A stretch of DNA of 62,410 bases, counting the filler, from Dugesia japonica (Eukaryota): assembly GCA_001938525.1 (NCBI GenBank). It is 6 parts of 6 records of this genome, joined end to end, with 100 filler letters (N's around TTAATTAATTAA, not from the genome) between each part and the next. Parts side by side here need not be neighbours in the genome. Positions count along the whole stretch, not along the records: positions 8,552 to 18,457 come from MQRL01493930.1; 5 more parts are not named here. One strand, written 5' to 3'. The notes below the pieces were generated by a model, which was not told the DNA's origin, did no database searches, and worked only from the letters and a program-made list of their open reading frames with translations. Position numbers and translations under genes: made by a program. This document shows, piece after piece, positions 5,105-61,800 of this stretch. Numbering within the stretch: position 1 is the stretch's first letter; each line of letters opens with the position of its first letter.

Positions 5105-6157
5105 ACTAACTGTGATGCTAATATCCAAGTAGGTTTTTGATATCCATGCCATTTTACATAATATTGTTTATTCTTTTTTGTTCCTTTCGATATTATTATT
5201 TTTTTGATTCAATATATAGTAGGAGGTGGAATGACTTGTAATTCTTGCCCATAAAACTTTCATTGTATGATATTATTCTCATAATCTTTAATTACATACA
5301 TGACTGGATTTTGTTTAGTATTGATTTTCGACATTTGAAACACTTCATCGCTTCAATTACTATCAAAGTTTTTAATGAATGGAGATGCCCTAATTTTTGA
5401 GATTCTAACATGGTCACGGACTTTATATTTTGGTTTCTTACTTGCTTTACTTTGATCACGCGATAACCATAGTTTTAATTGATTGTTTGAACTAACATCA
5501 ACCGGTCATGCACCATTTAAACCTTTATGACTCGAATGATTATAACTACGAATTAATTTTGACAACACATTTATCCAGGTTTTTTACCAGTATGTATAAA
5601 GTATTTTTCAAAGCATCCCTTAATGTGTGATTAAATCTCTCTACATGTGGCGCTTTATACTGAGAAAATACGGTATAATGGTTTATTTTTAGATGCGATA
5701 AAAGATCTTTGATTTTAGAGTTGTAAAATTCATTACCCAAATCTGTTTGTAAATTATCCGTATGTCCATATTTAAACATTGACTTAATTGGCGGTTCCAT
5801 ATCATTAGCCGATTTCGATTTGACTGGAATAGCTCTTGCAAATCGACTGAATACATCAAAACATGTCAAAATATTCTTGTATCGTTTATTTATTTTTTAA
5901 TATGGAATCATCTCCAACAAATCCATTTGCTATAAATCATCAATACCAAATGTTTTATATGCTCTTGTTTGAAATCTTTTCAACATTGTTTTGTTTAAAC
6001 TGTACGCTAGTTGACCCAATAACCACTTTGTAGTTTTTGATTTTTGTGCTGCTTTCATCAATTTTTCTACGCCAATAAAACTTGCGGGATTTTCTGCATC
6101 CGTACATATCGTCCTCAGCTTGCCCATTACAACAATTTGATGAAAATTTNAAATCAA
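5105..6157 (-). pseudogene. Polinton retroviral-type (rve, DDE) integrase, fragmented
   Basis: ENPASFIGVEKL..W....AYSL; DVFSRFARAIPVKSK; LQTDLGNEFYN; KAPHVERFNHTL; C-terminal VKWHGY..PTWI chromo-like tail. Confidence 0.9.
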
Positions 6158-9073: not shown

Positions 9074-10513
9074 CTAACCGCTTGCATCCGTTGCCAGTAT
9101 AAATGGTTTCCTAAAATCTGGTTGTACCAATATNGGTGCCGTCATTAACTTTTCTCGAATTGTTTCAAATGCTTTTTGATGCTCATCTGTCCAGATGAAT
9201 TTTACGTCTTGTTTCACTAGTGATTGAATCTGTCTCACGATTGTCGCAAATCCTTTGATAAATTTTCGATAGTAATTTGCCATACCTAGTAACGCTTGAA
9301 TGTCGTTCACGTTTTTCGGCACAGGTAAATTCTTTATTTTCTCAATATTCATCGGATCCTGTTGTTTTCCTTTGTCTGATATCAGATGCCCCAAATAAGT
9401 CACTTGATTTTTCGCCCATTCACACTTTTTAGGTTTCACTCGTAGTTTCCATTCTCTTATTCGTACAAACACATTCCTCAAATCTTTCAAATGTTCCTCA
9501 AACGTGACTGAAAATAGCAAAAAATCGTCTATATATACAATACACTGAGGTTTACCATGTGCCACAAAATTGATGCATCTCTGAAAGGATTCAGGCGCGT
9601 TTGTCTATCCAAACGGCATTCGCACAAATTGATATAAATCTTTGCCTGCTGAAAATGTGGTTTTCTCTTTGTCTGTTTCCTCTATTTCGATTTGCCAATA
9701 TCCACTCCGCCAATCTAATGTCGTAAATATCTTTGCATTATATAATAACGTTAACATATCATTGATGTCTGGTAACGGATCCTTTTTCGTTTTTGCATTT
9801 AATTGTCTGTAATCAATACAGAATCTCATTGTCCCATCTTTCGTCTTTACTAATACCACTGTAAATTGCCACGGCAAACAACTTGGTTCAATTACTTTAC
9901 ATTTCAACATCTCATCAATTTTCTCCTCACATATTTTCCTGCTTGCCTCTGCCTGTTTGTACGTTTGCAACTTTATTGGTGTTTCGTCTGTTAACACTAT
10001 TGCATGCTTGGTCACCGCGCACGTGCCTAATTCATTGTCTGTCCAAGCAAAATATCTCTGAATTCTTCCAATAATTGCAATAATTTGGTTTTTTCTGCTG
10101 CTGATAAGATAGTTGATTCCACTTTGAACGTTCGATCTACTTCTTCCGAATTTGTCGGAATTCGATTTCCATTCGTTAGCCATTTCTTCTTTTAATTTCT
10201 CATAATGATTACTTACCACATGGTTCATTTCTGCCTCTTTATCTTCCAGTGGGGTTAATACTCCGATTTTGGAATTGGGGAAAATAGTTATATCTTCCTC
10301 TGTTATGTTCAGTACATTCACTGGTACTTTGCCCTCGTCGGACACTTTTACTATTTCCCTTGCTGCGGGCAATTTATATTGTTTCGAAAACCCTTCGTGC
10401 GGTTCAAAAATCATATCCTCTTTACAGTTTGCTCTCGTTTTTGCAATACAAAATACTTGACTTCTCCTTGGTATCACATACTTTTCGTTTGTATATACTT
10501 CGTTATCATCCAC
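9074..10513 (-). pseudogene. Gypsy reverse transcriptase plus start of RNase H, preceded by a dUTPase-like linker
   Basis: VVLVKTKDGTMRFCIDYRQLN, LDWRSGYWQI, RMPFG*TNAPESFQR, YIDD, YLGH, LGMANYYRKFI, PFILATDASG. Ends abruptly at 9074; no integrase follows. Confidence 0.97.
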
Positions 10514-10529
10514 ATATAAATTTTCTCAA

Positions 10530-10860
10530 GAATTTGATATTTTCAATGTGGTCATATCCAAGATTACATTTTTCATCAATAATGGAATTAAATCTGTTCC
10601 CAATATGCAATCTTCACGGATATTCATCACCGTCATTTCATGCGATACTGTTCTCCCTTGATACTCAACTTCACATCGCAATTTGCCATACACTTCTGGT
10701 TGCCATCCATCAGCTAAAAATATATCTGATTTATTCTGTGTAATGTATGGTTACTTGGTCGGTGATATTAGATTATAATTTAATACTAATATTGTTGCTC
10801 CGGTGTCCAACAACGCTGATAGTATCCTACCATCGATTTTTAGGTCTATTAATATTCGAT
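10530..10860 (-). pseudogene. Retropepsin aspartic protease #2
   Basis: IDLKIDGRILSALLDTGATILVL ... (one stop) ... IFLADG ... DCILGTDLI; in frame with RT. Confidence 0.9.
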
Positions 10861-11150
10861 TACCCGCTTCAGAATAATTGTAACACACAAAATCCTTTTT
10901 CTTCGTTCGTCTCCGACAATCTCTTAATAAATACCCCATTAAACCACACACATAACATCGATTCAATTTCTCACATTCCATTTCGGAATGCCCCTTTTTA
11001 TCACAAGTTACACAATGTTTGCCTTTCTTTCGACATTCTTTAGTGGAATGGTCCGGTCTTTGACAATTTATACACCAGTTTGGGCTATTCCCAGCTCTCC
11101 AACATTGACTTGATAAATTACCTCGTTTATCGCAATGTACACATTTTGCC
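10860..11150 (-). pseudogene. Array of 4-5 CCHC-type zinc knuckles (nucleocapsid-like)
   Basis: CVHCDKRGNLSSQC, CINCQRPDHSTKEC, CVTCDKKGHSEMEC, CYVCGLMGYLLRDC and a degenerate CYNYSEAGN. Two keep an intact CX2CX4HX4C. Confidence 0.9.
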
Positions 11151-11199: not shown

Positions 11200-11490
11200 A
11201 CAATTTTCCATCAGGAAATAGCCTTCCCATCATATTCAATCCCACAATACAATCAAAAACTAAGTTCGCACATTGCCACACTGCATACTACAATCCAACT
11301 CGCCCACTGTGTTCACGGCTTGTCCGGTTACCGTTATCATTTGAATCCCATCTTTACGCATTCTTGCTTTATCAACTTCATACAGAACGCGTTCGTCAAT
11401 TATTGATCTACACGCTCCTGTATCGATCATACAATCTATTTCCCTACCGTTAATTGTCAATTTTTTGAGTAATATTCTACCACCTGGCAT
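11200..11490 (-). pseudogene. Retropepsin aspartic protease #1
   Basis: LTINGREIDCMIDTGACRSII...MITVTGQAVNTVG, then after a frameshift FDCIVGLNMM (ILGxD-type motif). Confidence 0.88.
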
Positions 11491-12269: not shown

Positions 12270-14160
12270 TATTGAGTACTACCGATTTAGCCCACTCTGG
12301 GAACAATCCCATAATCATTGTCCATGACATTTTTCTTTCTTTTTTGTATAAATCGAAACACGCTAGTAATTGAGTCAGTAATACTTTGATTATCTGCACT
12401 ATGACACTATTATTCCCAATAATCCTGTCATTGCTTGTCCGAAAACTATAAATCGACCCAACATCTTCTTTATTACATTTGCTGTTGGTTTTTGAAAGTG
12501 ATCTGGTGATAATAATAATTCATAATTCGGTCTCCCCTCTGACGTAAATGTTCCTCAAGCAACATACACAATATTAGATAAAATTTGCATTCGTTTGACC
12601 GGAAATAACATGTGCTCTCTGTCCTTCTATAGATCCTCCAATTTGTAGATACCGCCTTCTGCTACATTTAATGGATTAAAAGTCCGTCCCATCTTCAGTT
12701 TTAAGGCTGAAAAATTTCTCACAAAGGTATCTGCAGGTAATCTTTCAGGAAAACGTATTCATTTATTGTTAGCCATTTTGAAGTAGGGTCCAAATAAATT
12801 AGAACAGTTCAGTCTGTTCGGCACGAATACTTCTGGTGATATTACTCTAGTAATAGGTTGTACATACTGTTTTTCGCCCATATAATTGATTTCCATATCA
12901 TTATAGCAAGTTTTCTCTCTGGATAAAATTGCTTCCACCCTTCTAAATTGATATGTGAACATAATTTCTCCAAAAATTCGTCCGAATTGACCTTCCTCCA
13001 ATGGTAATACAGGGGTTACATTGTCGGGGTTTGTTATCGCTGTTGCTAATTTTGTCCGTAAAATTTCGCGATTTAACAAGCAGTCATTATAGATTAAATC
13101 ATGATACATTCGCTCCATAGATTGTTGCGCTAAGTAGAACAGAGTGTCTACTTTGTTATTCAGATATAAATATAACTTAGTATTCTGAGGCATAACTCCA
13201 TCTCTCGCCTTTTCCAGTCTCCGTTTTGATATGAAGATTCTATTGTAATTCGTTTTATATGCAATTTCTCCACACTTGGCCTCGGATTTCTTACGGATTA
13301 ATCTATTCATATCATTTGCATCGGTTGCCATTAATACGGTTGGTGTATCAGAACACAATAGGGCTTCCTCCTTGGTTTTCATCTCCACGTTTACTTTTCT
13401 GACTGCTGGCATTCTCTCCTCTTTAATTGAGTCTACAATTTTCTTTCCGCGATACTCATCGAACAAAACCTCTCTAAGAAATGANNNNNNNNNNNNNNNN
13501 NNNNNNNNNNNNNNNNNNNNNNNNNNNNNNNNNNNNNNNNNNNNNNNNNNTGAGGCCAAACACATTGAATACATCTTCATCTTTTTGGTCGTCGTATCAA
13601 ATAAGGCATCAAATTCTTTTAGTTCCACTCTATAACTTTCTATGGCTACTACTCCAGTCGCATAGCCTAAAGGGCTAGTGTATTTCCCCTGTACACAAGT
13701 TCCTGTTGCGTCCGAAATTGATCCTGCTGCGAATAAACGGGTTTGTACTATTTGATCTCCTTTGGCATTAATTATCTTTCCTTCGCCCACTGGTATTTTA
13801 CCGGTTGTAAATCCATATTCGCACCGTTGTCTTGTGAGGAGAACAGGTATTACTTCCATACCTGGGGATATGACTGCCGAATAACTACTTCCTCCACACC
13901 AATATACAAATACTTGCATTGTTACTTTACATTCTCTTACCTTTGTCTTATAATAAACGGATTCTTGGCACACAAAATAACTCATCGACTTCTGTACAAC
14001 TTTTAACTTTTCTGGGTTTGCTTCTGGGCATTCCTCTGCATCGATTAATGAATACACCGTTTCCCCGATATCCATATGATCACAATCATAAGCTCGGATT
14101 GCCGCACTTCGGCCCATTAAGAACATTAATATTAACACCATGAACATGGACTGCATACTG
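12270..14160 (-). pseudogene. Envelope glycoprotein related to chuvirus-type (class III, gB-like) fusogens, with signal peptide and C-terminal TM region
   Basis: Signal MFMVLILMFLMGRSAA, then IRAYDC..YSLIDAEEC, ECKV...YWCG..SYS, CGEIAYKTNY..IFI, YLNNK, CLLNREIL, GEIMF, CYNDMEI..Y.QPITRVI, C..LFGPYF. Manual continuation past the 12759 stop gives GGIYKLEDL..MLFP and the TM FIVFGQAMTGLLGIIV/IVQIIKVLL. Confidence 0.85.
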
Positions 14161-14258
14161 CTAGTTCTTGTACTTGGATTCGCTTCGGTTCCGTATTCGT
14201 CGATATAATCTTTTAATAATGCATGGACCCGTTCGTTTAATTTTCGACGCGAATTCGC

Positions 14259-14687
14259 TTTTGGTTTCATCATTTGGATTATTCCATTCCACCCTCCGGC
14301 ATTTACTAATATCGGATCGATTTGATCATTTGTTATTCCGACTATCGGCAGATTACTCAATTGAAATTTCATTCCTGGCCTACAACGAGCCACTGCTATT
14401 TGCGTTTGTTTTACTAAATATTCAAATGCCACTAGTAATTTCGGAATTGTCGAGCAATTCGACAGTACCCCTTGTACTTCTTTTTCCATCGTTTCCCGAT
14501 CCTTGAGTAGTGTATGTTTGGCAACTGGTAATTTTGCTATGATTGCTTCTAATATCACTGCTAATTGTTTGCTCTCCGTTGACAAAATTGTATTTCCGAT
14601 CCATAGTTTTAAATTTGGATANAGCGCTAGCAATACCTGGTGTACTCGTTTCTCGGTTGATAACGTGTGTGGTTCTAATCTCTCCAT
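14259..14687 (-). CDS. Bcl-2-like domain at the N-terminus of the 642-aa Env ORF
   Basis: BH1-like VQGVLSNCSTIPKLLVAFEY aligns without gaps to [20 protein letters not shown]. BH2-like ILVNAGGWNGI follows 40 residues later (39 in Bcl-2). Confidence 0.65.
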
Positions 14688-14690
14688 TAT

Positions 14691-15300
14691 TTACGAGGAT
14701 AATTCGGCCATTTGTTCATCCCTGGTTGGTTTTCTTCTCGTTGTGCCACTTGTTGTTGCTCCTTTTTGTCGACCCCTGGGCTTTTTATCCATCCACGTCT
14801 CCGAATCGCGATTCACTCGTTGATGTGTCTCATTATCGGTGGTATCATCGGTATTATCCGTTGTCTTCACTTCTTCAAACATTGCACGTGGTGGTATCAT
14901 CTCGCATGTTATTCCACCCAATCTAACTGATATATCATCGTCCTCCAGATCCAGGTCTACTTGATTTGGATTGAATTTTCCCGACTTCTTTGGTTTTATT
15001 AGTATTTCTGACTCTGACGTTGTCGCTGGTTCCATTGAAGTTATTTGAATTTCTTCATCATCCCCCTCATCTTCAAGATTCAAAATTTGTTCAACTATTT
15101 CATCTTTTGTAGTATTTTCTGTTGTCGACTCCTTGATTGGCGATTTTCTTGGTCGTCCTCTTGATTTGGCAACTACTTCACTCGTGTTACCTGGCTTTAC
15201 TAGTTGTAAAAATGATTTTATTGATGTCTGACTGGATCCTAGTCCCAATTGCAATTTATTTTTAACTTCCTTGGCTGGTAATTTTCTTCTGGTCAATCGT
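14691..15300 (-). pseudogene. Low-complexity acidic/basic region with AT-hook motif(s)
   Basis: KSRGRPRKSP is a canonical AT-hook core; KPRGRQKG is a weaker second one. In frame with the Bcl-2/Env ORF across a single TAA at 14691-14693. Confidence 0.6.
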
Positions 15301-15314
15301 TTACTACCTTCCGG

Positions 15315-18300
15315 TTTGATATAAATTTTATTCTCTACCTTTTGTCGGATATCTAACGTTCCGATGATATNGTTATTCAATAATTCCCGATTATTCAATA
15401 GTAGTACATATGGTGGCTCGAATGGTATTTTGAATTTCATCTGTTATACTGTCTCGTACACCAAATTTGGGATTCTCGTTACATCTGGTTCTATGATTCT
15501 GAAGCTAAATCTAAGTGGTAATACTTCATCTTATTCGCATTTCTTCAACCTTGATATCAGCAGTTTAATTTGCTTTGGTCTCCATTTGCATTTCTCTTTA
15601 CATCTGGATATTTCGTAAGTCAACGACCTCAACTCCTTAATTGACAAATCACTCTGCAATACTTGATCCGCTATATGCTCCACACTGGTTTTGTTTATAC
15701 TTTTCTCTTGATATTTTGATATGAATTGATCTGCCATATCGGCAGAATTTCCACTACACTTTTTCGATTTACCGGTCATTACCGCGACCATTTCCTGTGA
15801 TCTGCTCAACTCCTGATTTGATTTGTATTGTCGGTGTAATCTTGGTCTCTGCTGTATTACTGCTATCGTTTCTCGATTTGCTAATTTGATTTCTTTATTA
15901 TGTAGTTGCAATCCCCATGGCAACTTTGGATTGATATTCTCGGCATAATATCGTATTGTTTTTCTTAATAAATTCTCTCTAATTGTCTTTAACGTATACC
16001 GGTTTCTCTCATTTTCTTCACTTGCAAAAATATAGACATTCATTATATGACTTGGCTATGTGCCTGATCTCTTTACTGGATACTCGTCATGGTCCTCCGT
16101 AATATCTCCTTCACAATAAACTACAATATCTTCTCGTTTAGTAATTGGTGTATTCTCTTTTCCTCTCGCAGTTTGTTTATTCAAATGTTTGATAATTTTC
16201 TTTATTAATTTATCCCAACTTGTCGTCGTTTTAACATCAAACTCTTTACTTGATTCATCCGGAAAACGTACAGTTACTTGCACCTCTTGTTTTGATATGC
16301 TATCTGCATGAGTTATCGTTAACGTATGTATAAGCGTGTACAACGTTTTCCCTACTATCATACACAATTGGTTCAATCTATTTATTATCTCTTGAATATT
16401 TAATTCTTTCATTTGACTGTAATTCTTATAAATTGTTAACGCCATTTTTGCATGAGTTTGTTTCAAACTCTTCCATGGTTCACTTTCATTTTCTGCTTCT
16501 GCAATCCACTCAATCTCCTCGTCAGTAACGATTCTCAAATATTCCATTATATCTATTTCGTTTACATACACATTTCTCATTTTTGTTCTAATTCGACTAA
16601 TTGATTGTAATTCAAACATTTCGGTTTTCTGTCATCTAATTCCAACGTTAATTCAGTAATCTCTCCTGGTCNCAATCGGAACTCAATCACATGTTGATCC
16701 CTTTTATTCAACTTGTCCCTTTGTATAATCAAATAATCACACATAATCCAATACTTCTCAAAGGTTTTCTCTAAAGGCAATTTACTCAATATTGCTCGCA
16801 ACTCACCCACTCTGGTAGTTTGAAGTCCAGAACTCCACTATTTTCGTCTGCATGGTCATGAAAAAATTATCATCTATTGTAGGATAATTGATTTTTACCC
16901 CAAAATCCGATCCAACCGTTGTTGTTATTATCATCTCCTGGTACTCTTTAATTAATTCAGACCAGTTCCTCCGATGTTCCCATAGTATATCATAATGATA
17001 GTGTGCATCCCAGACTAAATTCAGCATTCTCCAATACGTTTGTTTCGGAATTAATTCCTTNCTCTCCAATGTGATACCCACGTATTTGTTTATTGCAGCA
17101 AAGTTATGATAGTAATCCTCATTGCTCTCCTCATTGACAATAGCTGATGTTTCACTCGGCTCATTCACACTTCCTTCTTCCACATTACTTGACTGTTTAG
17201 TTCCCTTTTTACTTCTATTTATTATTTTTATTGAAAATGATCTCATCATAAAAACTGTTCATCTTTAGCTTCTGTAGTAGTTTTAATTACAACGCTCGGC
17301 ATTTCAACTTTTGGTAATTCCATCAACTGAATTGCCAGTGGTGCCTTCTTTTCTGGCAAAGGCGCGAGATATTTGATTTGGCATTTATTCAATGAAATCA
17401 TTATATTTTCAGTTGTTCTAAAGTATAAATGAGGCCAAATTAGTTCGTTATATAAACGCATTCTCCGACTCTCTAACAACGTAATTACCATAGAAGTTCC
17501 AGGTTTCAGACCATATTCATAAATATGGGCATTTACATCATTGATGCTAACTACTGACACTGGTGTTCAAACAATAAATTCGCCTAATGGTTTTGCCCAG
17601 TTGACCTCCTCCAACGCATTGAGTAAATCTTTCACCGTCGTTCCTTTCAATTCTACCCCTCGTGGGATGTTACGCTTTGTCGACACTGGTACTTTCTTCA
17701 AAACCTGATCCATAGTGATGTATGGGGTTCTATCTTCATCTGGTCGCCATGCTTCCATTGCTTTGATTTTATAATCCCCCACAGTCGTGTTTTCCAGCAA
17801 CTCTTTCTCATATTCCAGAATTAATGGTCTCCATTTTTGACCCGTCATCGTGTCAATATGACCTGGTTTGGCTAACTCAACTAAATGATTCATTAATTTC
17901 CAATAAGCCTTTCTGCTTAGTTCATCTTTCAATAACTTAGCATTCTTTATGACTGTTTCTACATAATCATACACTCTTGTTTTGTTCTAATAGGTGCTTT
18001 CAATCGCGCTGGATTGCTTTTGGTTATCATGCTGATTTGAGCCATGGTATTTTCTGATTTTGCTGCTCCTCTTGTTGGTCGGGTCATTGGCTGTTTGATC
18101 TTCTTTACCACGTTTGCCAGGAATCCCTGCTGCAATTTACTTATTCCTTTGGTTGTGGTTGTTGACTCCGTCCGTAATAACACTATATATTTGTGATATT
18201 TCTTTTCAAATGATTTTACTATTTGCTCAGTCGTTCTGAAATCAAAATAATACCACAATGGACGTTTAATGCGATGCATATCTACTAAATCAATTATCTT

Positions 18301-18457
18301 TTCAAATGATTTTACTATTTTCTCAGTCGTTCTGAAATCAAAATAATACCACAATGGACGTTTAATGCGATGCATATCTACTTAATCAATTAACTTTATT
18401 GTTGTTTCACTTGGACAGACCCCATATTCCGATATATGTGCTTTAACATCATCTTGT
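15315..18457 (-). pseudogene. Repeated ubiquitin-like (beta-grasp) and helical modules in the 5' part of the retroelement polyprotein
   Basis: Ubl-like segments: TTVKDLLNAL..AHIYEYGLKPGTSMVITLL; VGELRAILSK..QHVIEFRLxPGEITELTL; VQVTVRFPDESSKEFDVKTTT; ETV*QMKFKI..LLLNNRELLNNxIIGTLDI. Internal repeats YW..W..LI.EY....TTVG and FRTTE.I..S..K each recur. Confidence 0.55.
18203..18392. repeat. 96-bp in-frame tandem duplication
   Basis: MHRIKRPLWYYFDFRTTE(K/Q)IVKSFEK is encoded twice, 96 nt apart. Confidence 0.9.
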
Positions 18458-23195: not shown

Positions 23196-24199
23196 TAATG
23201 ATTGTATTCATTTTAATAGGGGAACATAATAACATGTCGCTCCATCCCTCTTCAAAAAAAATAATTTTTTTGTATTTGTTTCAATTACAAGGGTTTTTTT
23301 TCAAGAAATTGTACAATTTATTTTACCTTTATGTTTTAATTATTATTATTTTTTTTTTTAAAATTTTTATTTAAATTTTATTTTTTAAAACTTTTTTTAA
23401 AATTTTGTTTTTATTTTTTATTAAAATTCTTTTGTTAAAATTTTTTTTTTTCAAATTTTAATTTTACAGTTCATCTCTTTTTTTGTTAATTTATTTAATG
23501 TCACGAGTAACATTTTCAAATAGAGAATTAAAAAGTAAGATAGGAATGTCTCATACACTTTTATTCTTAAATGCTTTCTTTCGGTGGAAAAATAGGAACA
23601 AAGAAATTTAGTTTTTTGAAGACAGAGTCAAGTAGAAACATGATATCACACCGAACTTTACATTGTTGGACGCACAATCAGAACACGAACAAATTAGTGT
23701 ACAAAAATATTTCTACTAACGTAATTATAAAAATATTATTCAACAAAGAAATTTCAAAAAGTGGATAAAATCAACCATTTTGAATTTTTTTAAAATTGTT
23801 TCTTGTACAATTTGGTAAAGAATTAAAAACCATTTATCCATTGTTTAAAGGACCAGTATGACAAAATGTATACTTTACGAGAAAATCACATAAGAAAGAA
23901 CAAAGGACTTTTAAAAAATATTTTTAAAATGAATCTTTGTCATCATTTCTTTATCAATATGTATCAAAGTTTATATCATTTGAATGGCAATAAGATGACA
24001 AATACGCGTGTCATGTTTTCTAAACAGTTTGACGAATAAGTAACGAGTTAGTCGTCATTTAAACATTAAACATGAATAAAAAATGAACAAATTAACTACT
24101 CACAAAATGTAAATAGATAAAACTTATTTTAAAAATGTTAATATGTTGCATTCGTGTTGCACATCTCCTATAAAAATGAACACACATACATATACTTGG

Positions 24200-26660
24200 T
24201 TCTATTTTCATAGACTTCTAAGTAAATTTTATAAAATTTCACCTACTTCTATGTAATTTTTAAAATTTCTTATCGACTTCTGTGAAATTTTTAAAATATT
24301 CTAAGGACTTCTATGCAATTTTCAAAGATTTTCCCCATTCGAATGGGAATTCGAATTTTTGGGGACCTCTATGTAATTTTTAAAACTTTAGCTCGACTTC
24401 TATGTAATTTATTAAAAATTGCAATGACTTCTATGTAATTTAGGAAATATTTTAACGACATATAATTAATACAGTTGAAATATCTNTGTAAGATAACACA
24501 CAAAAGACAATTATGAGAAAAATTTATTTTAATCACTGACATGTTCTTTATTACACATTTAAAAATTCAATAAATATGTCTTTATCAGTAATTTTTTTAT
24601 CATTTATTTCTCATTGGACTGTGAATCCGTCATATCCTTATTTTTACTTGTTTCAGACATTATTTCATCAAAAGTATCATCATTTGGAGGCATATCAATA
24701 TATAAATATTATGTATATTATATATAATACGTTTATTCTATGTACTTAATGACTCTATGTCGTTTATTGTATGTATTTTACTGTATGTATGGGTTTATTA
24801 TATGTTTTAACTAGTTCAATCGAGTTATTTATGTGTATTTAAGTGACTTTATTTAGGTATTTGTATGTATAATATATGACTATATTGAAATCGTTGTAAG
24901 TATTATATAACTATATTAAGTTTATTGTATGTATTTATTTGTATGTATTAGGTATAGTCTGAATATTTAAAAGAATTTATTGAGGTATTTATGTGTATTA
25001 TATCACTATATTGAGTTAATTGTATGTTTTATTTGACTATAGGGTATATTGTGTGTATTTCAATGATTTTAGTTGGTTAAATATATGTATTATATGACAT
25101 TATTTGATGCGATTTATGACATTATTTCGTGTATTTTGTGTATTATATGGTATATTATATGTATTATATGAATATATAGAGTATATTAAGTATGTATTAT
25201 ATCACTACATTGTGTTTATTGTGTGTAATATCTNACTTTATAGATCTTAATATGTGTATTATAAGAACCTATTGGGTTTATTGTATGAATCTGGTTAATA
25301 TCCATTAGTTTACTATGTATGAAGCTCTATTAGATTTTTAATAGTCATATGCTTATGTTATGTTTAAAAATATTACATAGATGTACATGCAGTTTTTCAA
25401 AACATTACATAGACATCTGTGCGATTTTGAAATATTTGATCAGAAAGCACATATAAAACCCTACAAAACCCAATAATAACATATAAAACTTTATAAATCT
25501 AATAAAAACTTAGTAAAAGATTATCAGACCACATAAAGCCTTATAATAACCCTATAATTACTATAGAATCACCCTATAAACCTATCAAAATCCTATAATA
25601 ATATAATTACCATGTAATAGCTTTATAAAACCATATTGGAGTTAGTATAATATTTTTCATGAAATTTATGAAGATTTGTATGAACGTTGTATATTTTATT
25701 AATAAAATGATCTGTAGATTGTAAATATTAGATGTATTAATAGGTTTTGAAGGTTATGAATAGATTTAATGTATATATTTCTTTGAATTATTTGCGTTCA
25801 TGTGATGTAATTATTGAATGTATGCTGTTTATTGTTTCATTGAGTTCATTGGCTTTATTGCGTGATTTTCATAACTCTAGTAAGTTTTTCAGGTATATAG
25901 AGTAAATATTTAGAAATAATACCATGACATTTGGTAAATTTTTAGAAACATTTTAGGGACCTCTAGTAACGTTTTTGAAATAATTAACAGATTTCTAGTA
26001 ACTTTTTACAAAAATTACCGGATCTCTGGTAAGTTTTTGAAATATTTTAAATACATCTAGTAATTCTTTGTGTTATTTTACCAATGTTTTACATGGGATT
26101 CTGAAATTGTTAGCGACATCTAGTAAATTTTTGAAATAATTGCATGGCGTTTGTAAACTTTTTGAAATATTTAAATGACATTTGGTAATGTTTTGAAATA
26201 GTTACAAGATATTTGGTAACTGTTTGAAGTAATTACATGACAATTGATAACCTTTTATTGAAATATTAGTAATTTTAAAAATATTGATTAACAAGCTCAT
26301 ATAAAAGCATATAATTACTCTATAAAATCTATGAACCTTAAAAAAGATTTATATAATTACCATATTAAACCCTATAAAAGCATAATGAGAATATATAAAT
26401 CCGTATATTTACTCTATAAAAATCTTATTATTCTTATAAAAAGCAATATAATAACAAATAAAAACCCATAAATAAGCTAAAGAAACATATAAAACCCATA
26501 AATTATATAAAACTCTATTAAAACCCTATAATTACCTAATAAAAACATAATAACCATATATTTACCTTATAAAAAACTTATAATGACTCTATAATTATCT
26601 TAGAAAACCTTTTAATAACCCTATAGAAACATATAAATACCTTATAAAATACCTGACTAT
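24200..26660. repeat. Composite minisatellite-rich repeat (~31-32-bp units such as gacttctatgtaatttt, tttattgtatgtattatatga, catctagtaa.ttttt, aaaaccctataa)
   Basis: Several adjacent degenerate arrays. The same blocks recur in similar order at 48200-49920. Confidence 0.8.
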
Positions 26661-28197: not shown

Positions 28198-29203
28198 TTA
28201 TTTTCTCATATTCCCCTTCTTAAGAAACTTTCTAAGTTTTTCCACATTTCTCTCTAAACACTGTCCATTTTCTCCTTGTACTGCATACCTCCTTTCATGA
28301 ATTTTCTCAATTATTCGATAAGGTCCCTCAAATCTGTTTTGACTTTTATTTCCTGTTTCTACCTTTATGAGTACATAATCGCCCACTTTGAATTCTCTTT
28401 TAGTATTTTCGTCTGAAATGTTTTCTTTAATTATATCTGAAACGTCTGACTCGTACCACTTTTCTCTGCTAATTTTCTTTCCAAAAACGATCTCAGCACG
28501 GCTCTTTCTAGTAGTCTTCTGCTTTGTTGCGTTCATTGTAAATTCTATTTCCGGTACAAGGTGTGCCCAATCTGTTGATTTTCTTTCTTGAAGGGTAGCA
28601 TTAATCAAATCTCGAATGGTCCTGAACTGTCTTTCTANNNNNNNNNNNNNNNNNNNNNNNNNNNNNNNNNNNNNNNNNNNNNNNNNNTGACTTTTATTTC
28701 TTGTTTCTACCTTGATGAGTACATAATCGCCCACTTTGAATTCTCTTTTAGTAATTTCGTTGGTAATGTTTTCTTTAATTACCACTTTTCTCTGCTAATT
28801 TTCTTTCCAAAAACGATCTCAGCCAGGCTTTTTCCATTAGTCTTCTGCTTTGTTGCGTTCATTGTAAATTCTATTTCCGGTGAAAGATCTGCCCAGTCTG
28901 TTGATTTTCTTTCTTAAAGGGTCGCATTAATCAAATCTCGAATGGTCCTGAACTGTCTTTCTATTTGTCTGTTAGCATTATGATGATATGGACTCGAAAA
29001 GCAAAGTTTAATGTCTAACTTCTGTGCAAACTCTCTCATAACTCTGGATTCAAACGCTTTTCCACAATCACATCTTATTTCTCTTGGACATCCAAATCTC
29101 AATATTTACTTTTCAAAAATAGCTTTTCATTTCGTTTCCTCGTCTTGTCTAGGCAATGGTATAAGAACCAGATATTTACTGTATTGGTCGATTATTCCAA
29201 GAA
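28198..29203 (-). mobile_element. Gypsy integrase fragment (DDE core + GPY/F module), partly duplicated across a gap
   Basis: IIDQYSKY, RFGCPREIRCDCGKAF, SPYHHNANRQIERQFRTI, FKVGDYVL..RFEGPYRI. Confidence 0.92.
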
Positions 29204-39310: not shown

Positions 39311-40079
39311 ATGGCAGAAAGAATGATTGAGAAGTCAGAAAATTGTAAAAATACCAAAGAATTACGAGAATGTGAATAAATTTTAAAATAATTGTTGAGT
39401 GAAATATATTGTTTGTGGCTAATACGATGTGATACAAGTGTTTATACTAAAGATATAGGAGATAAGTTGATTCAAATTTACCCAAGCATAATGACGGAAA
39501 TGAATGTAAAAGACACTTATAATGATCAGAAAATGATTAATAAATAGTTTGACAATGGATGTACTAAAAATAAAATTTTAGTCGGACTTGGATTCTTAAC
39601 TCAGCAAATTGGCCTTAATATTTCAAATGATGGTAGAAATATGGGAATTTTGATAAAAGACGCAACAAAAATTATAAATTATATGTATGATTTTATCCTG
39701 AAACAATGAGGTTGGGAATCCTTGTCGGTTTTAAAACCGATAAAACCCAGAAATCCATCCTTTTCCTCAAGATTTGGAGGTAATGTTGTTGATAATGATT
39801 ATTTTGATCAGTTGTATAAGCGTTAGTACAGCCTTAACAGCTTTTGATTGTTCTCAAACTGAATTGGGAAAAATATATTCATTAGTTAATGTGGTGGAAT
39901 GTCTAGGTGCACATTCGTTAAAATTGAAAACAGAAAAAATGTACCATATTATGCGTATCAATAGTCAGGAATTCGTCGGACAACAATTCGGAAAAGAACA
40001 ACTTTTATATTTTATTGTGGAAAATGGAGTCACTCATCATTAAAAGATTTTAAATCAATTCCAAGACCAGTAGATATTA
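39311..40079 (+). pseudogene. Second, diverged Bcl-2-like + signal peptide + glycoprotein N-terminus cassette (degraded, cut by contig end)
   Basis: One frame from ATG 39311, with several stops: BH3-like TKDIGDKLIQIY, BH1-like FDNGCTKNKILVGLGF, BH2-like FILKQ*GWESL. After a frameshift: VMLLIMIILISCISVSTA-LTAFDC..IYSLVNVVEC and later FYCGKWSHSS, homologous to IRAYDC..YSLIDAEEC..YWCGGSSYS at ~14090. Confidence 0.78.
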
Positions 40080-45629: not shown

Positions 45630-47960
45630 TCTAACTGGTATTCACAGTAAACACGATGGCAAAAAAGAAAAGATGAACGACGAAATTTTTTTTCGAAATT
45701 ACCGTCTTCAACTTAGGAGCCGAGTTTTTTGATGGATCATCAGATAAAGCTAAAGAGTGGATTCAAATAACAAAAGAGTTCAGGTCGTTCAATCGGATGG
45801 AATTATAGTTTGCTTTTGATATGCTAATGCGCCAGAATGGTAAGGAGTTCTGGTTGGCAAAAACAAAAGAAGTTGAGAAATTGTCTAATGAAATTTGTGA
45901 ATTTTAGTTTCAAGAATCATTCATAATTCAGGAAACATTGGTTGATAAGGTTTCGATCTTGTCAAAAATAATGCAGAAACCAAATGAAAAATTACGAAAT
46001 TTTGAAATTAGAGTAAGAAAACTAGTCAATGAAGTATTTTCAAGTAAGAAGTCATTCGATGAAAAAGCTACATTGTTTATAACTAATAGCATACAGAGCG
46101 AAAAGTTGAAGGAATCATTTGTCCTCCGATCAGAGTTAACTGATATCCAACGACGAGAATTGGGTTCTAAATCGGTTAATCTAATACCAACACACTCTAT
46201 CAGTATGGTGAAAGAGATTTATTCTAATTGATTAAAAATTAATTAAAAATGTGTCAATTCAAATTTGGAAACAATCACCCGAAGATAAGTGTTCAAAGTG
46301 ACACAAATATTAGAGACCGACAACTCCATTTCAAAAAGATCCGCATTTCGAACAAAGCAAGTCGACTCAAAGACAAGGTCAGTATAATTTTCTGCAATAT
46401 TCTTTGACATATTTAGCAAATAAACTATATTGTAAAGCTAAAGGGACGATACCGCCATGAAACAAAATCATAAAGACAGGAGCATGTTTTTGCTGTGGAG
46501 AAACTAGTCATAGAAAGATGAATTGTCCATNGAAAGGAAAATGCTTAATTTGTGGAAAGGAAAGTCATGGTTTTCGGGATTGTTTATTGATTTGAGCAAG
46601 AAACTTTTCGGTGTCTAAAGTTTTGTGTATTTCAGAAAAGAATGATAATCAATTCCGTACAAGGGAATATATAGATTATATACATGATGGATTATATACA
46701 CGATAGATTACAAAAAAACGATTGGAAACCCACTTCATCCATCTTATCATTGAGGTTACAATAACGGATTGTAAAACGACAGATGTAAGAATGATATTTG
46801 ACAAAAAGAAGATATTTCAGAAGAAAGATGGAAGAGAATAGAGTATAGAGAAATATATATGACGTTGAAATTTTATGGGATTCAGGAGCATCGATATCAG
46901 TATTGAGATAAGAAGTTTAGAGAAAAGTTGAATCACCGACGCTATCGCAGTCACAGATTGTGTTATCAGGAGTTTTTTCAGAGAAAGCAAAAAGATGTAT
47001 TGGCAAAATTAAATTACATTTACATTGGTATGGGAAACGAAAAGAAAATAGTAATTGTCAAAAATATTCGTCACGGATTTATTGTGGGCATTGATATGAT
47101 GAGGATATTTGGAATGAAAAAAACCGAAGTTGACTTTATTGATTCAATTGAGCGAATTGTTGAGAATCCAAAAAGAGTGAAAAATGTTCTGAATATTCAA
47201 AAGAATGTCAATCAAGAAATTAGAAGACTGATAGAAGAACACGTAGAGATATTTATAATATCCAAATTTGATCTTGGATTTACATTGAAACCAAAAGAAG
47301 ATCAATAATGTTAAATCCTAGAAGACAACCAATGCATTTGAAAAGAAAGATTGACGAGTTTAAAGATAAATCCGGATAAATGCGTATTAAATTCTGAGAA
47401 ATTGCGATTCTTGGGTCATTCCAATAGTGCTATAAGTGTAGAGACAAACTATGATACTGTCAGGAAAATCGGAGAAGCGGACACACCAAAATGCGCCACA
47501 TTTCTAACCAACTATTACAGGCGGTTTTCTAAAAGACTACGCTCACATTACAGCACCATTATATGCAGCCATTGCAAGGTAATAAAAAAAATTGAATGTA
47601 CAAACAAATGTGAGTATAGTTTTCAAATGTTAAAGATAAAGTTAAGCAGTCCTATTTTGGCTTTTCCAAATGATAAAAATGACATAATATTGGAAATATA
47701 TGAATGTTTTGCGGCAATTGGAGGAGTTTTAAGCCAAGTTACAAACTAAAAGAATAGAAACGAGTAATAAATTATGGTTCTAACACATTAAATGATCATA
47801 AAAAAGGATATTGCGTAACTTGCAAGGAGTTTTATAATTACAATTATTGGTGGACTTAATTATTGATCACGTTTGAGATTTTTTTTGATCGAAGCCTTTT
47901 CTTTATTTTAATGAAATCGCAAGGAGTTGTTGGCATTGCACAAGTTCATGGTGCACTGAA
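45630..47960 (+). mobile_element. Degenerate conventional Gypsy gag-pol fragment
   Basis: Gag-like FFDGSSDKAKEWI..Q.PNEKLRNFEIR, knuckles CFCCGETSHRKMNC and CLICGKESHGFRDC, protease DSGASIS..FIVGIDMM, RT thumb LKINPDKC..FLGH..NYYRRF, RNase H AIGGVLSQ..YCVT.KEL. Confidence 0.85.
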
Positions 47961-48199
47961 CCCCACTGTTGATAATTTAATGATTAAAAATTTCTGGTGA
48001 CGTAATCATAAAAAGGTATTACACAAAAAACGTTAAAAATAAAATACAGCCGCCATTTTAAATTTTTAAAATTTTATTCTTGTACAAGTTTATAAAGAAT
48101 TAAAAACTACGTATCTATTACCTTAATGACTAGTATAAAAAAGTTTTTTGTTTTGATACAATTTAGAATCTAATTTAAAATATAAAGTTGAACAAAGAA

Positions 48200-49920
48200 A
48201 TTTTTTATGGGGGACTTCTATGCAATTTTTAAAATATTTCAACGATTTCTATGTAATTTATTAAAAATTGTTATGACTTCTATGTAATTTTGGCTATATT
48301 TTAACAACATCCATGTAATACAATTGAAATATCTATGTAAGATAACACTCAAAAGACAATTATGAGAAAACATTATTTAAAACACACATGTTTTTTATTA
48401 GACACTTGAAAATTCAATCAATATGTCTTCATCTGTCATTTCTTTATCATTTTCCTCATCATTGGACTGTGAAACAATCATTTCCTCATCAATCATATCC
48501 TTATTTGTAGGTGTATCGGGCATTAATTTATCAAAAATATCATCATTTGGAGGTATTTCAATTATTTCCTCATAAATAATGACATCATTTATAGTTGTAT
48601 CAGGTATTTCCTCATCAATATAGACATAATTTAGTAGAGTATCGTTCATCTCTTACTTGGATGTTGCATCTATTTCATCTTTCTCTACGTCAATCATATC
48701 GTCTATAATATTATAGAAATGCATTAACAATCAGTTGTTAAGTTTGTATCAGTCCTTTATTTATCTTACATTTTCATTGCTTAACATGTATTTATGATGT
48801 ACACATGGATTAATTTGTATAACATTTTAATGTCCCCCTGGAACTTTTAATATTAATATTTTAAATAGATGAGTATTTTGCTGTATAATGTGTATTATAT
48901 GGGTCTATTTGGTTCACTCTATATATTTACCTGTATGCATAGGGTTTATTGTATGTATTTAACTGAATTTATAGGGTTTATTGTACCTTTTAACTAGTTC
49001 AATTGAGGTATTGGTATGTATTTAATGCTATTAGGTTTATTGTATGTATTATATGACTAAAGAGTATATTGTGCGTACTTAAATAAAGTTATTTCATTAA
49101 ATATATGTATTATATGACATCATTGGATGCAATTTATGACAATATTTTGTGTATTACGCGAGTGTATAAATAAAAATATATAAACTTTAATTAACTTTTA
49201 TGTAATATCTGTGTTATTTTCTCCTATGTTTTACATGGGATTTTGTAAACGCTTAGTAAAATATATAAAATTTTTGGGCAAATACATAGAGATATATGTT
49301 ATGTTTGAAAAATATTACATAGATCTTAATGTGTGTATTATAAGAACCTATTTGGGTTTATTATATGTATAATGGTTTTCTGTGTATAAGACCCATTTAG
49401 TTTATTGTATGAATACTACTTGTTGGTTTCATCTGCATAAAATTCAATTGAGTTATTTGTGTGCATTTAATGCCTCTATTAGTTAAATTTGTTTATTATA
49501 TGTCTTAATGAATTTATTTTGTGTATTATATAACTATATTGGGTTTATTGTATGTAATAATTTGTATACTTAAATGACTTTATTGAGTATTTTTTGTGTA
49601 TTATATGACATTATTGGATGTAATATTTGATATTATTTCGTGTATTATGCGTATTATATGACATTATTTTGTATATTGTTTGTATTATGTGAATATATAG
49701 AATATATTATGTGTGCATTATACAATTTAAAAATTTTTATTGTGTGTATTATATGACAATCTTGGGCGTATTGTATGTATTTAAGTGACTTTATTGGGTT
49801 AATTATATGTATTATATGACTAAATTGGGTTTATTGCGTGCATAATATAACCTTATTAGGTTTATTGTATGTATTATATGGATATATAGGGTATATTGTA
49901 GGTATTTATGTGACTTTAAT
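48200..49920. repeat. Second copy of the composite minisatellite-rich repeat, containing an 83-aa acidic ORF (48398-48649, minus)
   Basis: Shares ttgaaatatct.tgtaagataacac.caaaagacaattatgagaaaa and flanking arrays with 24200-25400. Confidence 0.8.
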
Positions 49921-60011: not shown

Positions 60012-61800
60012 CAGGTATCCCTCCTATAACATGGATGATAGGTTCATATAATATGACGTGTTATGTGAAACCGTGCTATAGGAGACTAGAAGTTGGCACA
60101 AAAAGAGGAGTAACGTTCCAAAAAAAAATTTTAATGGCATAGAAGAAACTTTATTTTTATTAAGAATAACAAAACAAATAAAAATCCATTTAAATACAGA
60201 AAAACAAATAGAAATCCACGTAAATAGATAAAAGAAAAACAAAAATCGGCATAAATACATGAATATATAAATTTAATTTAGTAATGTATTCGTCATTACT
60301 GCTCAATTCAATTAAACGGGAACGTTTGTTCGGTTGTTTAACATCATCTTTACTTCCTGAACTTTTTTCTGTATTTGTATTTTGCTCACCTGATATCTTT
60401 ATAAATTCCGTAATCTTGCTTTGTTTCCTTGTCCTTTCAAGGTTGTTGTAAATTTCTTGATATGGTCATAAGCTATTTTGCAATTCTCTTTTGTAAAGTA
60501 ATTCCAAGTTTTTGGGTAGGCTTAATCTTTCCTGTAATTTTTTTAATGTAAAATTATTAACTTTAGTATTTTCATCAGAGCTAGAATCGATTTCATTCAT
60601 TTGGGATAAGGATGCCATTTCTACCAAATCTGCTTCGCCATGTTCTTCTTCCACTAATAAGTCTTGAACATCCTTAATAGCCATATCCACAAATCCGGGT
60701 GCAGTTTTTCATTTTTTGATATAAATGTCCTATTGGGCTTTTTGTTCCAGCAAAGCCCAGTTTCATCGGCATTGATGCTTTGTTTGTTTTGATGTGTATC
60801 CTTGCTCCTCAATTATTTTTTTTAATTTTTCTGGATATGACCTAGCAGCTTCATGATTTGCCGATGAAATTTAACCTTGAATTTTTATATTGTGAAGTGA
60901 AAAACGACTTTTGAATTTCTCAAGCTAACCTTTACTGGCTAGAAAATCTGGATTCACAGAAGATTCTCCGTCTTGTTTAAGATGATTATTAATTTTAAGA
61001 GCCTTTTGCCTAATTATATTACTCTCCAATGGTATCCTTTTCTGACAGTTATCATNNNNNNNNNNNNNNNNNNNNNNNNNNNNNNNNNNNNNNNNNNNNN
61101 NNNNNAATAGCCATATCCACAAATCCGGGTGCAGTTTTTCATTTTTTGATATAAATGTCCTATTGGGCTTTTTGTTCCACCAAAGCCCAATTTGATCGGC
61201 ATTGATGCTTTGTTTGTTTTGATGTGTATCCTTGCTCCTCAATTATTTTTTTAAATTTTTCTGGATATGACCTAGCAGCTTCATGATTTGCCGATGAAAT
61301 TTAACCTTGAATTTTTATATTGTGAAGTGAAAAACGACTTTTGAATTTCTCAAGCTAACCTTTACTGGCTAGAAAATCTGGATTCACAGAAGATTCTCCG
61401 TCTTGTTTAAGATGATTATTAATTTTAAGAGCCTTTTGCCTAATTATATTACTCTCCAATGGTATCCTTTTCTGACAGTTATCATCAATCCAAATGCTAA
61501 GTGCTTTATCCATTTTTTTAATTACTGGCACACGGAGACGAGCTGAGGATTTTGAAGAGGATTGCGAAGATCCTGCAACAACAGCACTCCTAATTTTCTT
61601 TTCACTTTTCTTCATTGTGCAGACTGTCACCTCATTTAAATTTAGGGTTTTTACAATGTGTGATGCTTTTTCTCCTGTTAACAGCCGATCTAAAATTTGT
61701 ATTTTTACTTCTAAAGAAATAAACTTTCTCTTCAAAGTTGTTTTTTTATTTCCATCAGACATAGTTTAGGGCTGCAATTTATTGTTCAAAAAATAGTCTG
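60012..61800 (-). mobile_element. Tigger/pogo (CENP-B-type) DNA transposon, internally deleted, with a duplicated segment across the gap
   Basis: KRKFISLEVKIQILDRL..GE..LNLNEVTV (psq-type HTH), MDKALSIWIDD..IIRQKAL..FLASKG, NAD(E/Q)(T/I)GL. TIR-like caggtatccctc at 60012. Confidence 0.9.

Follow-up and report, generated by a model that had tools for sequence, protein, structure and literature searches.

A predicted Bcl-2-fold domain in frame with the gB-type Env of a decayed Burro-like element in Dugesia japonica

The minus strand of a 62,410-nucleotide stretch of Dugesia japonica DNA (filler included; hereafter the window) carries a decayed Ty3/gypsy element (about 18.1 to 9.07 kb) in which a domain at 14196-14687 very probably has the Bcl-2 fold, as judged from a profile of relatives and a structure model, and is joined in frame to a gB-type Env. 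This domain-Env architecture is already known, and the present finding is a confirmation; the additions are modest and consist of structural support for an annotated motif, a family-wide loss of NWGR, a patchy presence across Env lineages and a topology model. We propose that in intact Burro-like elements the domain would act as a captured brake on host cell death, a model-based reading to which we assign a probability of roughly 55%.

Table 1. Features of the element and of a second remnant, in window coordinates
Feature	Positions	Strand	Basis or remark
Decayed accessory region 5' of the domain	14694..18100	-	Env frame from 16631 down, four stops
Bcl-2-fold domain, predicted eight helices (residues 11-164)	14196..14687	-	Profile, model, structure comparison
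BH1-equivalent, start of helix 5; TIPK at 14450-14439 in the place of NWGR	14418..14468	-	Seven-row alignment
BH2-equivalent ending GGWNGI (14297-14280)	14280..14315	-	Seven-row alignment
Internal Env signal peptide, core MFMVLILMFLM (14147-14115)	14100..14150	-	Cleavage predicted three residues N-terminal to YDC
gB-type (class III, Monjiviricetes-like) Env	12340..14099	-	PF24664 E 5.5e-48; 2.6e-62 read through with X
Aspartyl protease 1	11269..11460	-	PF13975 E 3.1e-6, PF13650 E 2.7e-5
Four CCHC-type zinc knuckles between the proteases, two without His	10916..11143	-	Read from translation
Aspartyl protease 2	10586..10858	-	PF00077 E 5.5e-5
Reverse transcriptase and RNase H start; element truncated here	9077..9844	-	PF00078 E 9e-29, PF17919 E 9e-11
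Second remnant: Bcl-2-like domain, leader, Env start	39452..39960	+	Six-relative profile 35.4 bits, E 4.7e-10; tblastn of P0044

Evidence for a Bcl-2 fold

Searches with the D. japonica domain itself returned no Pfam match at E<=1, PF00452 included, a single unrelated phmmer match in the PDB (E 0.5), and a best Atlas ProQ of 0.77, below the threshold of 0.9; with the relative P0044 as the query, Atlas returned clusters without a name (0.81), and none of its structural matches exceeded TM 0.45. The word-index protein searches yielded none among 154 and none among 8000 candidates, with one Bel/Pao Env among 7987, the viral contig scan found no relative, and the single-sequence AlphaFold model reached a pLDDT of 37. 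Relatives were gathered by phmmer using the domain plus the Env N-terminus as the query (137 proteins), and the list was narrowed by requiring a long upstream part and a motif of the GGW type: 24 of the 137 have at least 100 residues 5' of the mature Env, and six of these 24 show such a motif before the leader. All six match PF00452 as fragments (best E 3.3e-5); the two bit scores given, 20.1 and 19.0, lie below its gathering score of 31.4 bits. The Pfam check suggested in the earlier note, which had claimed a Bcl-2-family domain from the sequence alone, was thus positive below the cut-off for the relatives and negative for the D. japonica copy.

When the six relatives and the D. japonica domain were combined into a profile and compared with the PDB, Bcl-xL came first (E 5.2e-5) and the top 56 rows all belonged to the Bcl-2 family. 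A leave-out profile built from the six relatives only, which contained neither the D. japonica copy nor any signal peptide or Env sequence, scored the domain at 11.4 bits, above all 2000 of 2000 shuffles (best shuffle 9.2). When 834 six-frame chunks of the window were scored, the domain (E 0.048) was surpassed by a single other locus. The resemblance rises above chance through the relatives and not from the D. japonica sequence alone. One relative, P0011, is joined to the query by a single phmmer alignment that runs from the domain into Env (query 52-347).

The motifs are placed as the earlier note had described them. Counted from M at 14687 as residue 1, residues 71-90 read VQGVLSNCSTIPKLLVAFEY; TIPK, found where NWGR would be expected, starts at residue 80, GGWNGI at 131, and the hydrophobic stretch occupies 180-191 and is followed by YDC at 14090. 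The TIPK lysine and the GGW tryptophan are 50 residues apart, compared with 47-50 in five relatives and about 49 between BH1 and BH2 in Bcl-xL and Bcl-2. GGW is separated from the hydrophobic core by 47 stop-free residues, close to the approximately 45 claimed. Conservation of GGW and its spacing among homologues had been named as a test, and G132 and W133 are the sole invariant columns in the seven rows (six relatives plus the D. japonica copy). The BH2 pattern W-x4-G-G-W lies at the expected distance from BH1, with the first W replaced by Ile in the D. japonica copy, and takes the form W/Y-x4-G/Q-G-W in all six relatives. The NWGR motif itself was not found: the six rows that cover it read TIPK, NRDK, SRNK, TDSK, TFTK and DQNR, so that W and G are lost and a basic residue is retained in every one. 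Judging from this alignment, the change is family-wide rather than a product of decay in the D. japonica copy.

AlphaFold2 with the seven-row alignment predicted eight helices (pLDDT 57, pTM 0.48); because it was built from relatives that are already Bcl-2-like, this model is not independent of the alignment. All 47 Foldseek rows listed for it were Bcl-2 family members (best E 0.048, none <=0.001), in agreement with the proposed fold. In a VIA-align comparison with 48,161 chains, ranks 1-35 were Bcl-2-fold proteins, with a best Z of 10.6 and 4.9 for the first unrelated chain, where values below about 13 may be generic for helical bundles; the best matches, BHRF1, HyBcl-2-4 and Bcl-xL, superposed with an rmsd of 3.5-4.0 over about 130 aligned residues. 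In a further comparison of the fold, the top viral row was BALF1. The matches also included A52, N1, A46 and B14 (we count the poxviral proteins A52, A46, B14 and A49 as having the Bcl-2 fold), and the BH3-binding members ranked above A52 and B14 (Z 10.6 versus 5.3-7.4).

Two other readings bear on these results. According to one, the D. japonica copy is not a Bcl-2 homologue, and the alignment drew in a helical domain of some other kind, such as Gag CA/MA, which would accord with the absence of a direct match and with an identity of only 11-21% to the relatives. We regard this as highly improbable: the domain has the same place before the leader, the invariant GW and a fitting BH1-BH2 spacing, it outscored every shuffle and is continuous with Env in the P0011 alignment, and no capsid or matrix fold occurred among 50 VIA-align rows, on which ground a Gag CA/MA fold was rejected. 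According to the other, the Bcl-2 fold has been repurposed, with a groove that does not bind BH3, and would block innate-immune, autophagy or ER-stress signalling in the manner of A52, B14 and A46, which are poxviral Bcl-2-fold proteins with non-apoptotic roles. The loss of W and G from NWGR in all six covering rows, a predicted position at the ER rather than at mitochondria, and the presence of A52, N1, A46 and B14 among the structural matches speak for it. The well-kept BH2 in six of six relatives, Bcl-xL as the best sequence match and the higher Z of the BH3-binding members argue the other way, and we judge repurposing unlikely, if worth keeping in mind.

The decayed element and its relatives

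In the element, the accessory region is followed by the domain, the leader, the gB-type Env, a protease, the zinc knuckles, a second protease, reverse transcriptase and the start of RNase H (Table 1). Env matches PF24664 at 163.8 and 211.1 bits against a cut-off of 27; the gene is interrupted by stops, and a frameshift falls within its C-terminal membrane segment. For the zinc knuckles, Pfam gives only zf-CCHC_4 (E 0.41). The minus-strand frame stays collinear between 16631 and 12402, where 1410 codons contain 7 stops, and it is open between 14690 and 12759; frameshifts occur elsewhere in the element. An in-frame stop (14693-14691) lies immediately 5' of the Met at 14687, which has a good start context, and the frame runs on upstream with more stops. 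This stop is more likely to be a lesion than a gene boundary, because P0004 and P0005 read through the domain in one frame: P0004 has a Gag zinc knuckle, a spacer, the Bcl-2-like domain and Env in a single frame, and P0005 reads from the domain through Env into the proteases. It is therefore probable that the domain lies within a longer polyprotein and is not the N-terminus of a stand-alone Env. At three of the seven stops, other copies read differently (among 40 of 596 rows listed), and these three are private lesions; the D. japonica copy at 9.07-18.1 kb cannot make a full-length Env or Pol.

No Gag capsid was found in the accessory region, no LTR pair was found within 3000-24000, and MATH, BIR, ankyrin, integrase and Gag domains were not detected in this copy, which is truncated at both ends. 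A candidate ubiquitin-like fold at about 15960-16340 (minus strand) gave only weak Pfam matches (RA_2 E 0.054, FERM_N E 0.15); a second stretch upstream of the Bcl-2-like domain, 15300-15530 (minus strand), looks ubiquitin-like by eye. The relatives P0005, P0006, P0007 and P0009 apparently also have more than one protease, perhaps for the processing of a long polyprotein. GC content is 35-38% inside the element versus 17-32% outside, and the window is AT-rich, animal-type DNA that contains numerous remnants of transposons as well as AAT microsatellites; its AT-richness and microsatellites are compatible with a planarian host. A 96-nt tandem duplication (98% identical) occupies 18201-18392, where the element has its upstream end. 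Elsewhere in the window we noted unrelated transposon remnants (5549-5896, 28201-29200, 47342-47746, 486-848 and 61358-61765), among them cores of integrases, part of an RNase H, and helix-turn-helix fragments of the Tc1/mariner and Tc5 types, as well as a diverged repeat pair at about 24170-25300 and 48170-49920, some 24 kb apart in window coordinates, with 31-nt minisatellite units inside.

The number and spread of the contigs that align to 12300-18150 (run X1: 4191 contigs, 517 at least 99% alike and 2493 less than 95% alike) point to a large, diverged element family. RNA reads (run X22) numbered 115, of which 92 were less than 90% alike, with a depth of 0-1 over the Bcl-2-like domain; this is a weak family-level signal and includes nothing for the copy described here. 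The second, independent remnant (Table 1) is much diverged, shares 24% identity with the first copy over 85 aa, and contains stops and a frameshift; compared alone with the PDB, it matched only a chitinase (E 0.26).

The domain is absent from 18 of the 24 matches that have at least 100 upstream residues, including P0003, the nearest Env relative. A rapidly built Env tree with 35 rows, of which 7 were carriers (two of them short), 12 non-carriers and 16 unlabelled, and from which P0002 was left out, placed P0003 nearest to the D. japonica Env (SH-aLRT 97). The domain label required four changes on this tree, as it also did in 39 of 500 shuffles that performed equally well, and well-supported branches force at least two. 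On this distribution the Bcl-2-like domain is an optional module, whose history may comprise one gain followed by losses or several gains. Among the proteins gathered, P0010 is a 2627-aa Env-PR-RT-IN gypsy polyprotein labelled as a Flavobacteriaceae MAG and is probably mis-binned animal DNA.

The Env leader and the proposed mechanism

The earlier note had the domain fused in frame to Env through an internal signal peptide, and this reading holds: there is no stop between them, and a hydrophobic leader is present in all seven carriers, 27-59 residues beyond GGW. We compared the 45 residues before YDC in seven Bcl-2 carriers and 15 non-carriers, the latter being P0135 together with 14 of the 18 non-carriers that have a long upstream part, whose other four members (P0029, P0085, P0114 and P0129) were left out. 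All 15 non-carriers likewise have a hydrophobic leader, and most of the 22 leaders show, by eye, small residues three positions before (A/G)YDC, a pattern that fits the cut suggested between SAA and IRAYDC. The leader core is short (11 residues in the D. japonica copy). Hydrophobicity was 2.55 in carriers versus 2.79 in non-carriers for KD12 and 1.66 versus 1.84 for KD19 (p 0.19-0.29), and the 19-residue insertion energy was 4.35 versus 2.35 (p 0.08), the wrong direction for a tail anchor. A hydrophobic stretch does follow the domain, as in a C-terminal tail anchor, yet it is the generic Env leader; by this comparison, the leader belongs to the Env module.

These data bear on a strong form of the model, according to which selection has made a stable tail anchor of the Env leader and the domain is a canonical membrane Bcl-2 protein produced 1:1 with the fusogen. 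Its position 27-59 residues past GGW in seven of seven carriers is as this model would have it, the shortest of these spacings resemble the tails of host Bcl-2 proteins, and topology would tether the domain by default. However, the leader also occurs in 15 of 15 compared non-carriers, that of the carriers is neither longer nor more hydrophobic (KD19 p 0.19; energy p 0.08), and an ER signal would not direct the protein to mitochondria, which makes a selected anchor improbable. Of the earlier claim that the signal peptide doubles as a tail anchor, tethering is what would remain; it follows from topology, and nothing indicates that it has been adapted towards a true tail anchor. The claimed 1:1 coupling to fusogen synthesis fares similarly: the domain is in frame with Env, but the coupling would be to the whole polyprotein and not to Env alone, as the arrangement in P0004 suggests.

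The domain could instead have a structural role, forming a head in the cytosol on an extended Env leader and serving in capsid recruitment or in the control of fusogen maturation, for which the foamy-virus leader peptide offers an analogue. Its fixed place beside the leader in seven of seven carriers and in the second remnant is compatible with such a role; close relatives have the same Env without the domain, so assembly can do without it, and we think this explanation very unlikely.

For the captured brake on cell death, we favour a topology model drawn from flavivirus and HCV polyproteins. Gag and the accessory domains, the Bcl-2 domain included, would stay in the cytosol, and the leader would thread Env into the ER lumen and then be cut by signal peptidase. 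After cleavage, what is left of the leader would hold the domain at the ER, probably in a loose or short-lived way, until an element protease or signal peptide peptidase released it; the C-terminal membrane segment of Env would return protease and reverse transcriptase to the cytosol. The groove would bind host pro-death Bcl-2 proteins, with the retained Lys/Arg replacing the NWGR arginine, and would dampen cell death while the element is expressed. The most complete version is put forward tentatively and with the odds against it: gypsy elements with an Env would encode functional Bcl-2 mimics, tethered at the ER through the signal peptide, that bind partners of the death pathway by a groove lacking W and G, and the module would have been gained or lost repeatedly among Env lineages; if true, it would place a functional viral-type Bcl-2 outside large DNA viruses, made by polyprotein processing.

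Comparison with Burro and other known systems

The earlier note knew of no Bcl-2 protein in an LTR retroelement, but the layout was already in print: a BCL2-like motif followed by Env in frame, protease and reverse transcriptase in one ORF is described for planarian Burro LTR elements (PMC6431247, section 7, 2019), in a section that cites Jurka 2007 and Grohme 2018. The order BCL2-like, Env, PR, RT of Burro/GYPSM1 is the one present here, as are an Env matching mononegaviral fusion glycoproteins, an upstream accessory region, high copy number and decayed fragments (PMC6431247). Unlike Burro, only a truncated 9-kb piece is available, and it is likened to Burro by layout, not by identity to Burro-1 to -4. 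Burro has a giant ORF from Gag to Pol, and in the present copy the frame 16631-12402 is collinear but contains seven stops; Burro also has an N-terminal Gag, MATH, BIR, ankyrin, integrase and LTRs and exceeds 25 kb, whereas none of these was detected in the doubly truncated copy. A ubiquitin/SUMO-like domain precedes BCL2 in Burro, where we found only the RA_2 and FERM_N matches (E 0.054 and 0.15), and a dUTPase-like domain lies between PR and RT, where the spacer of our copy had no match in the PDB. Two proteases with zinc knuckles between them are seen here and are not mentioned for Burro in section 7 of PMC6431247. On balance, the domain appears to behave as a Burro accessory module, and the element is Burro-like by layout.

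Our literature search found neither a functional test of the Burro BCL2 domain nor a signal-peptide or tail-anchor proposal, either of which the primary Burro papers or their supplements may hold. GAG-ENV-POL errantiviruses with an HSV/gB-type Env occur in Platyhelminthes, Bryozoa and Nematoda, according to the covered part of PMC13524379, and resemble the present element in having Env 5' of pol, a gB-type fusogen and the PR-RT-RH order. Within the covered parts of these sources, the main text of PMC13524379 contains no 'bcl', 'apopto' or 'Burro', PMC8532177 no 'bcl' and PMC11209288 no 'retrotransposon'.

A further parallel is the Burro1 IAP module (B-IAP, RING plus BIR), which protects stem cells according to a second-hand account in the covered part of PMC13465017. 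Like the Bcl-2-like domain, B-IAP is a host-derived apoptosis regulator on the same type of element, and unlike it, it belongs to a different protein family. Because this module was functionally tested, anti-death cargo would, on second-hand grounds, be a habit of the Burro-type group. If the Bcl-2-like domain works, Burro-like elements would have an IAP and a Bcl-2 module that counter cell death independently of each other, a point of relevance to the tolerance of transposons in stem cells.

The predicted fold is shared with the viral Bcl-2 proteins (BHRF1, KsBcl-2, A179L, M11L and ORFV125, and the non-apoptotic A52, B14 and A46), which also tolerate an altered BH1 motif. In ORFV125, SPGR stands in the place of NWGR, with the Gly kept, and the hallmark contact with BH3 continues to be formed by the Arg, as given in the covered part of PMC7719400; because an altered motif there still uses the Arg contact, BH3 binding by the groove of the present domain is possible by analogy, although the loss of the Gly from all covering rows may close the groove and calls for caution. 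The viral Bcl-2s are stand-alone genes, whereas the present domain forms part of the polyprotein of a reverse-transcribing element and precedes an Env leader that is predicted to be cleaved; if it works, retroelements would join large DNA viruses in Bcl-2 mimicry.
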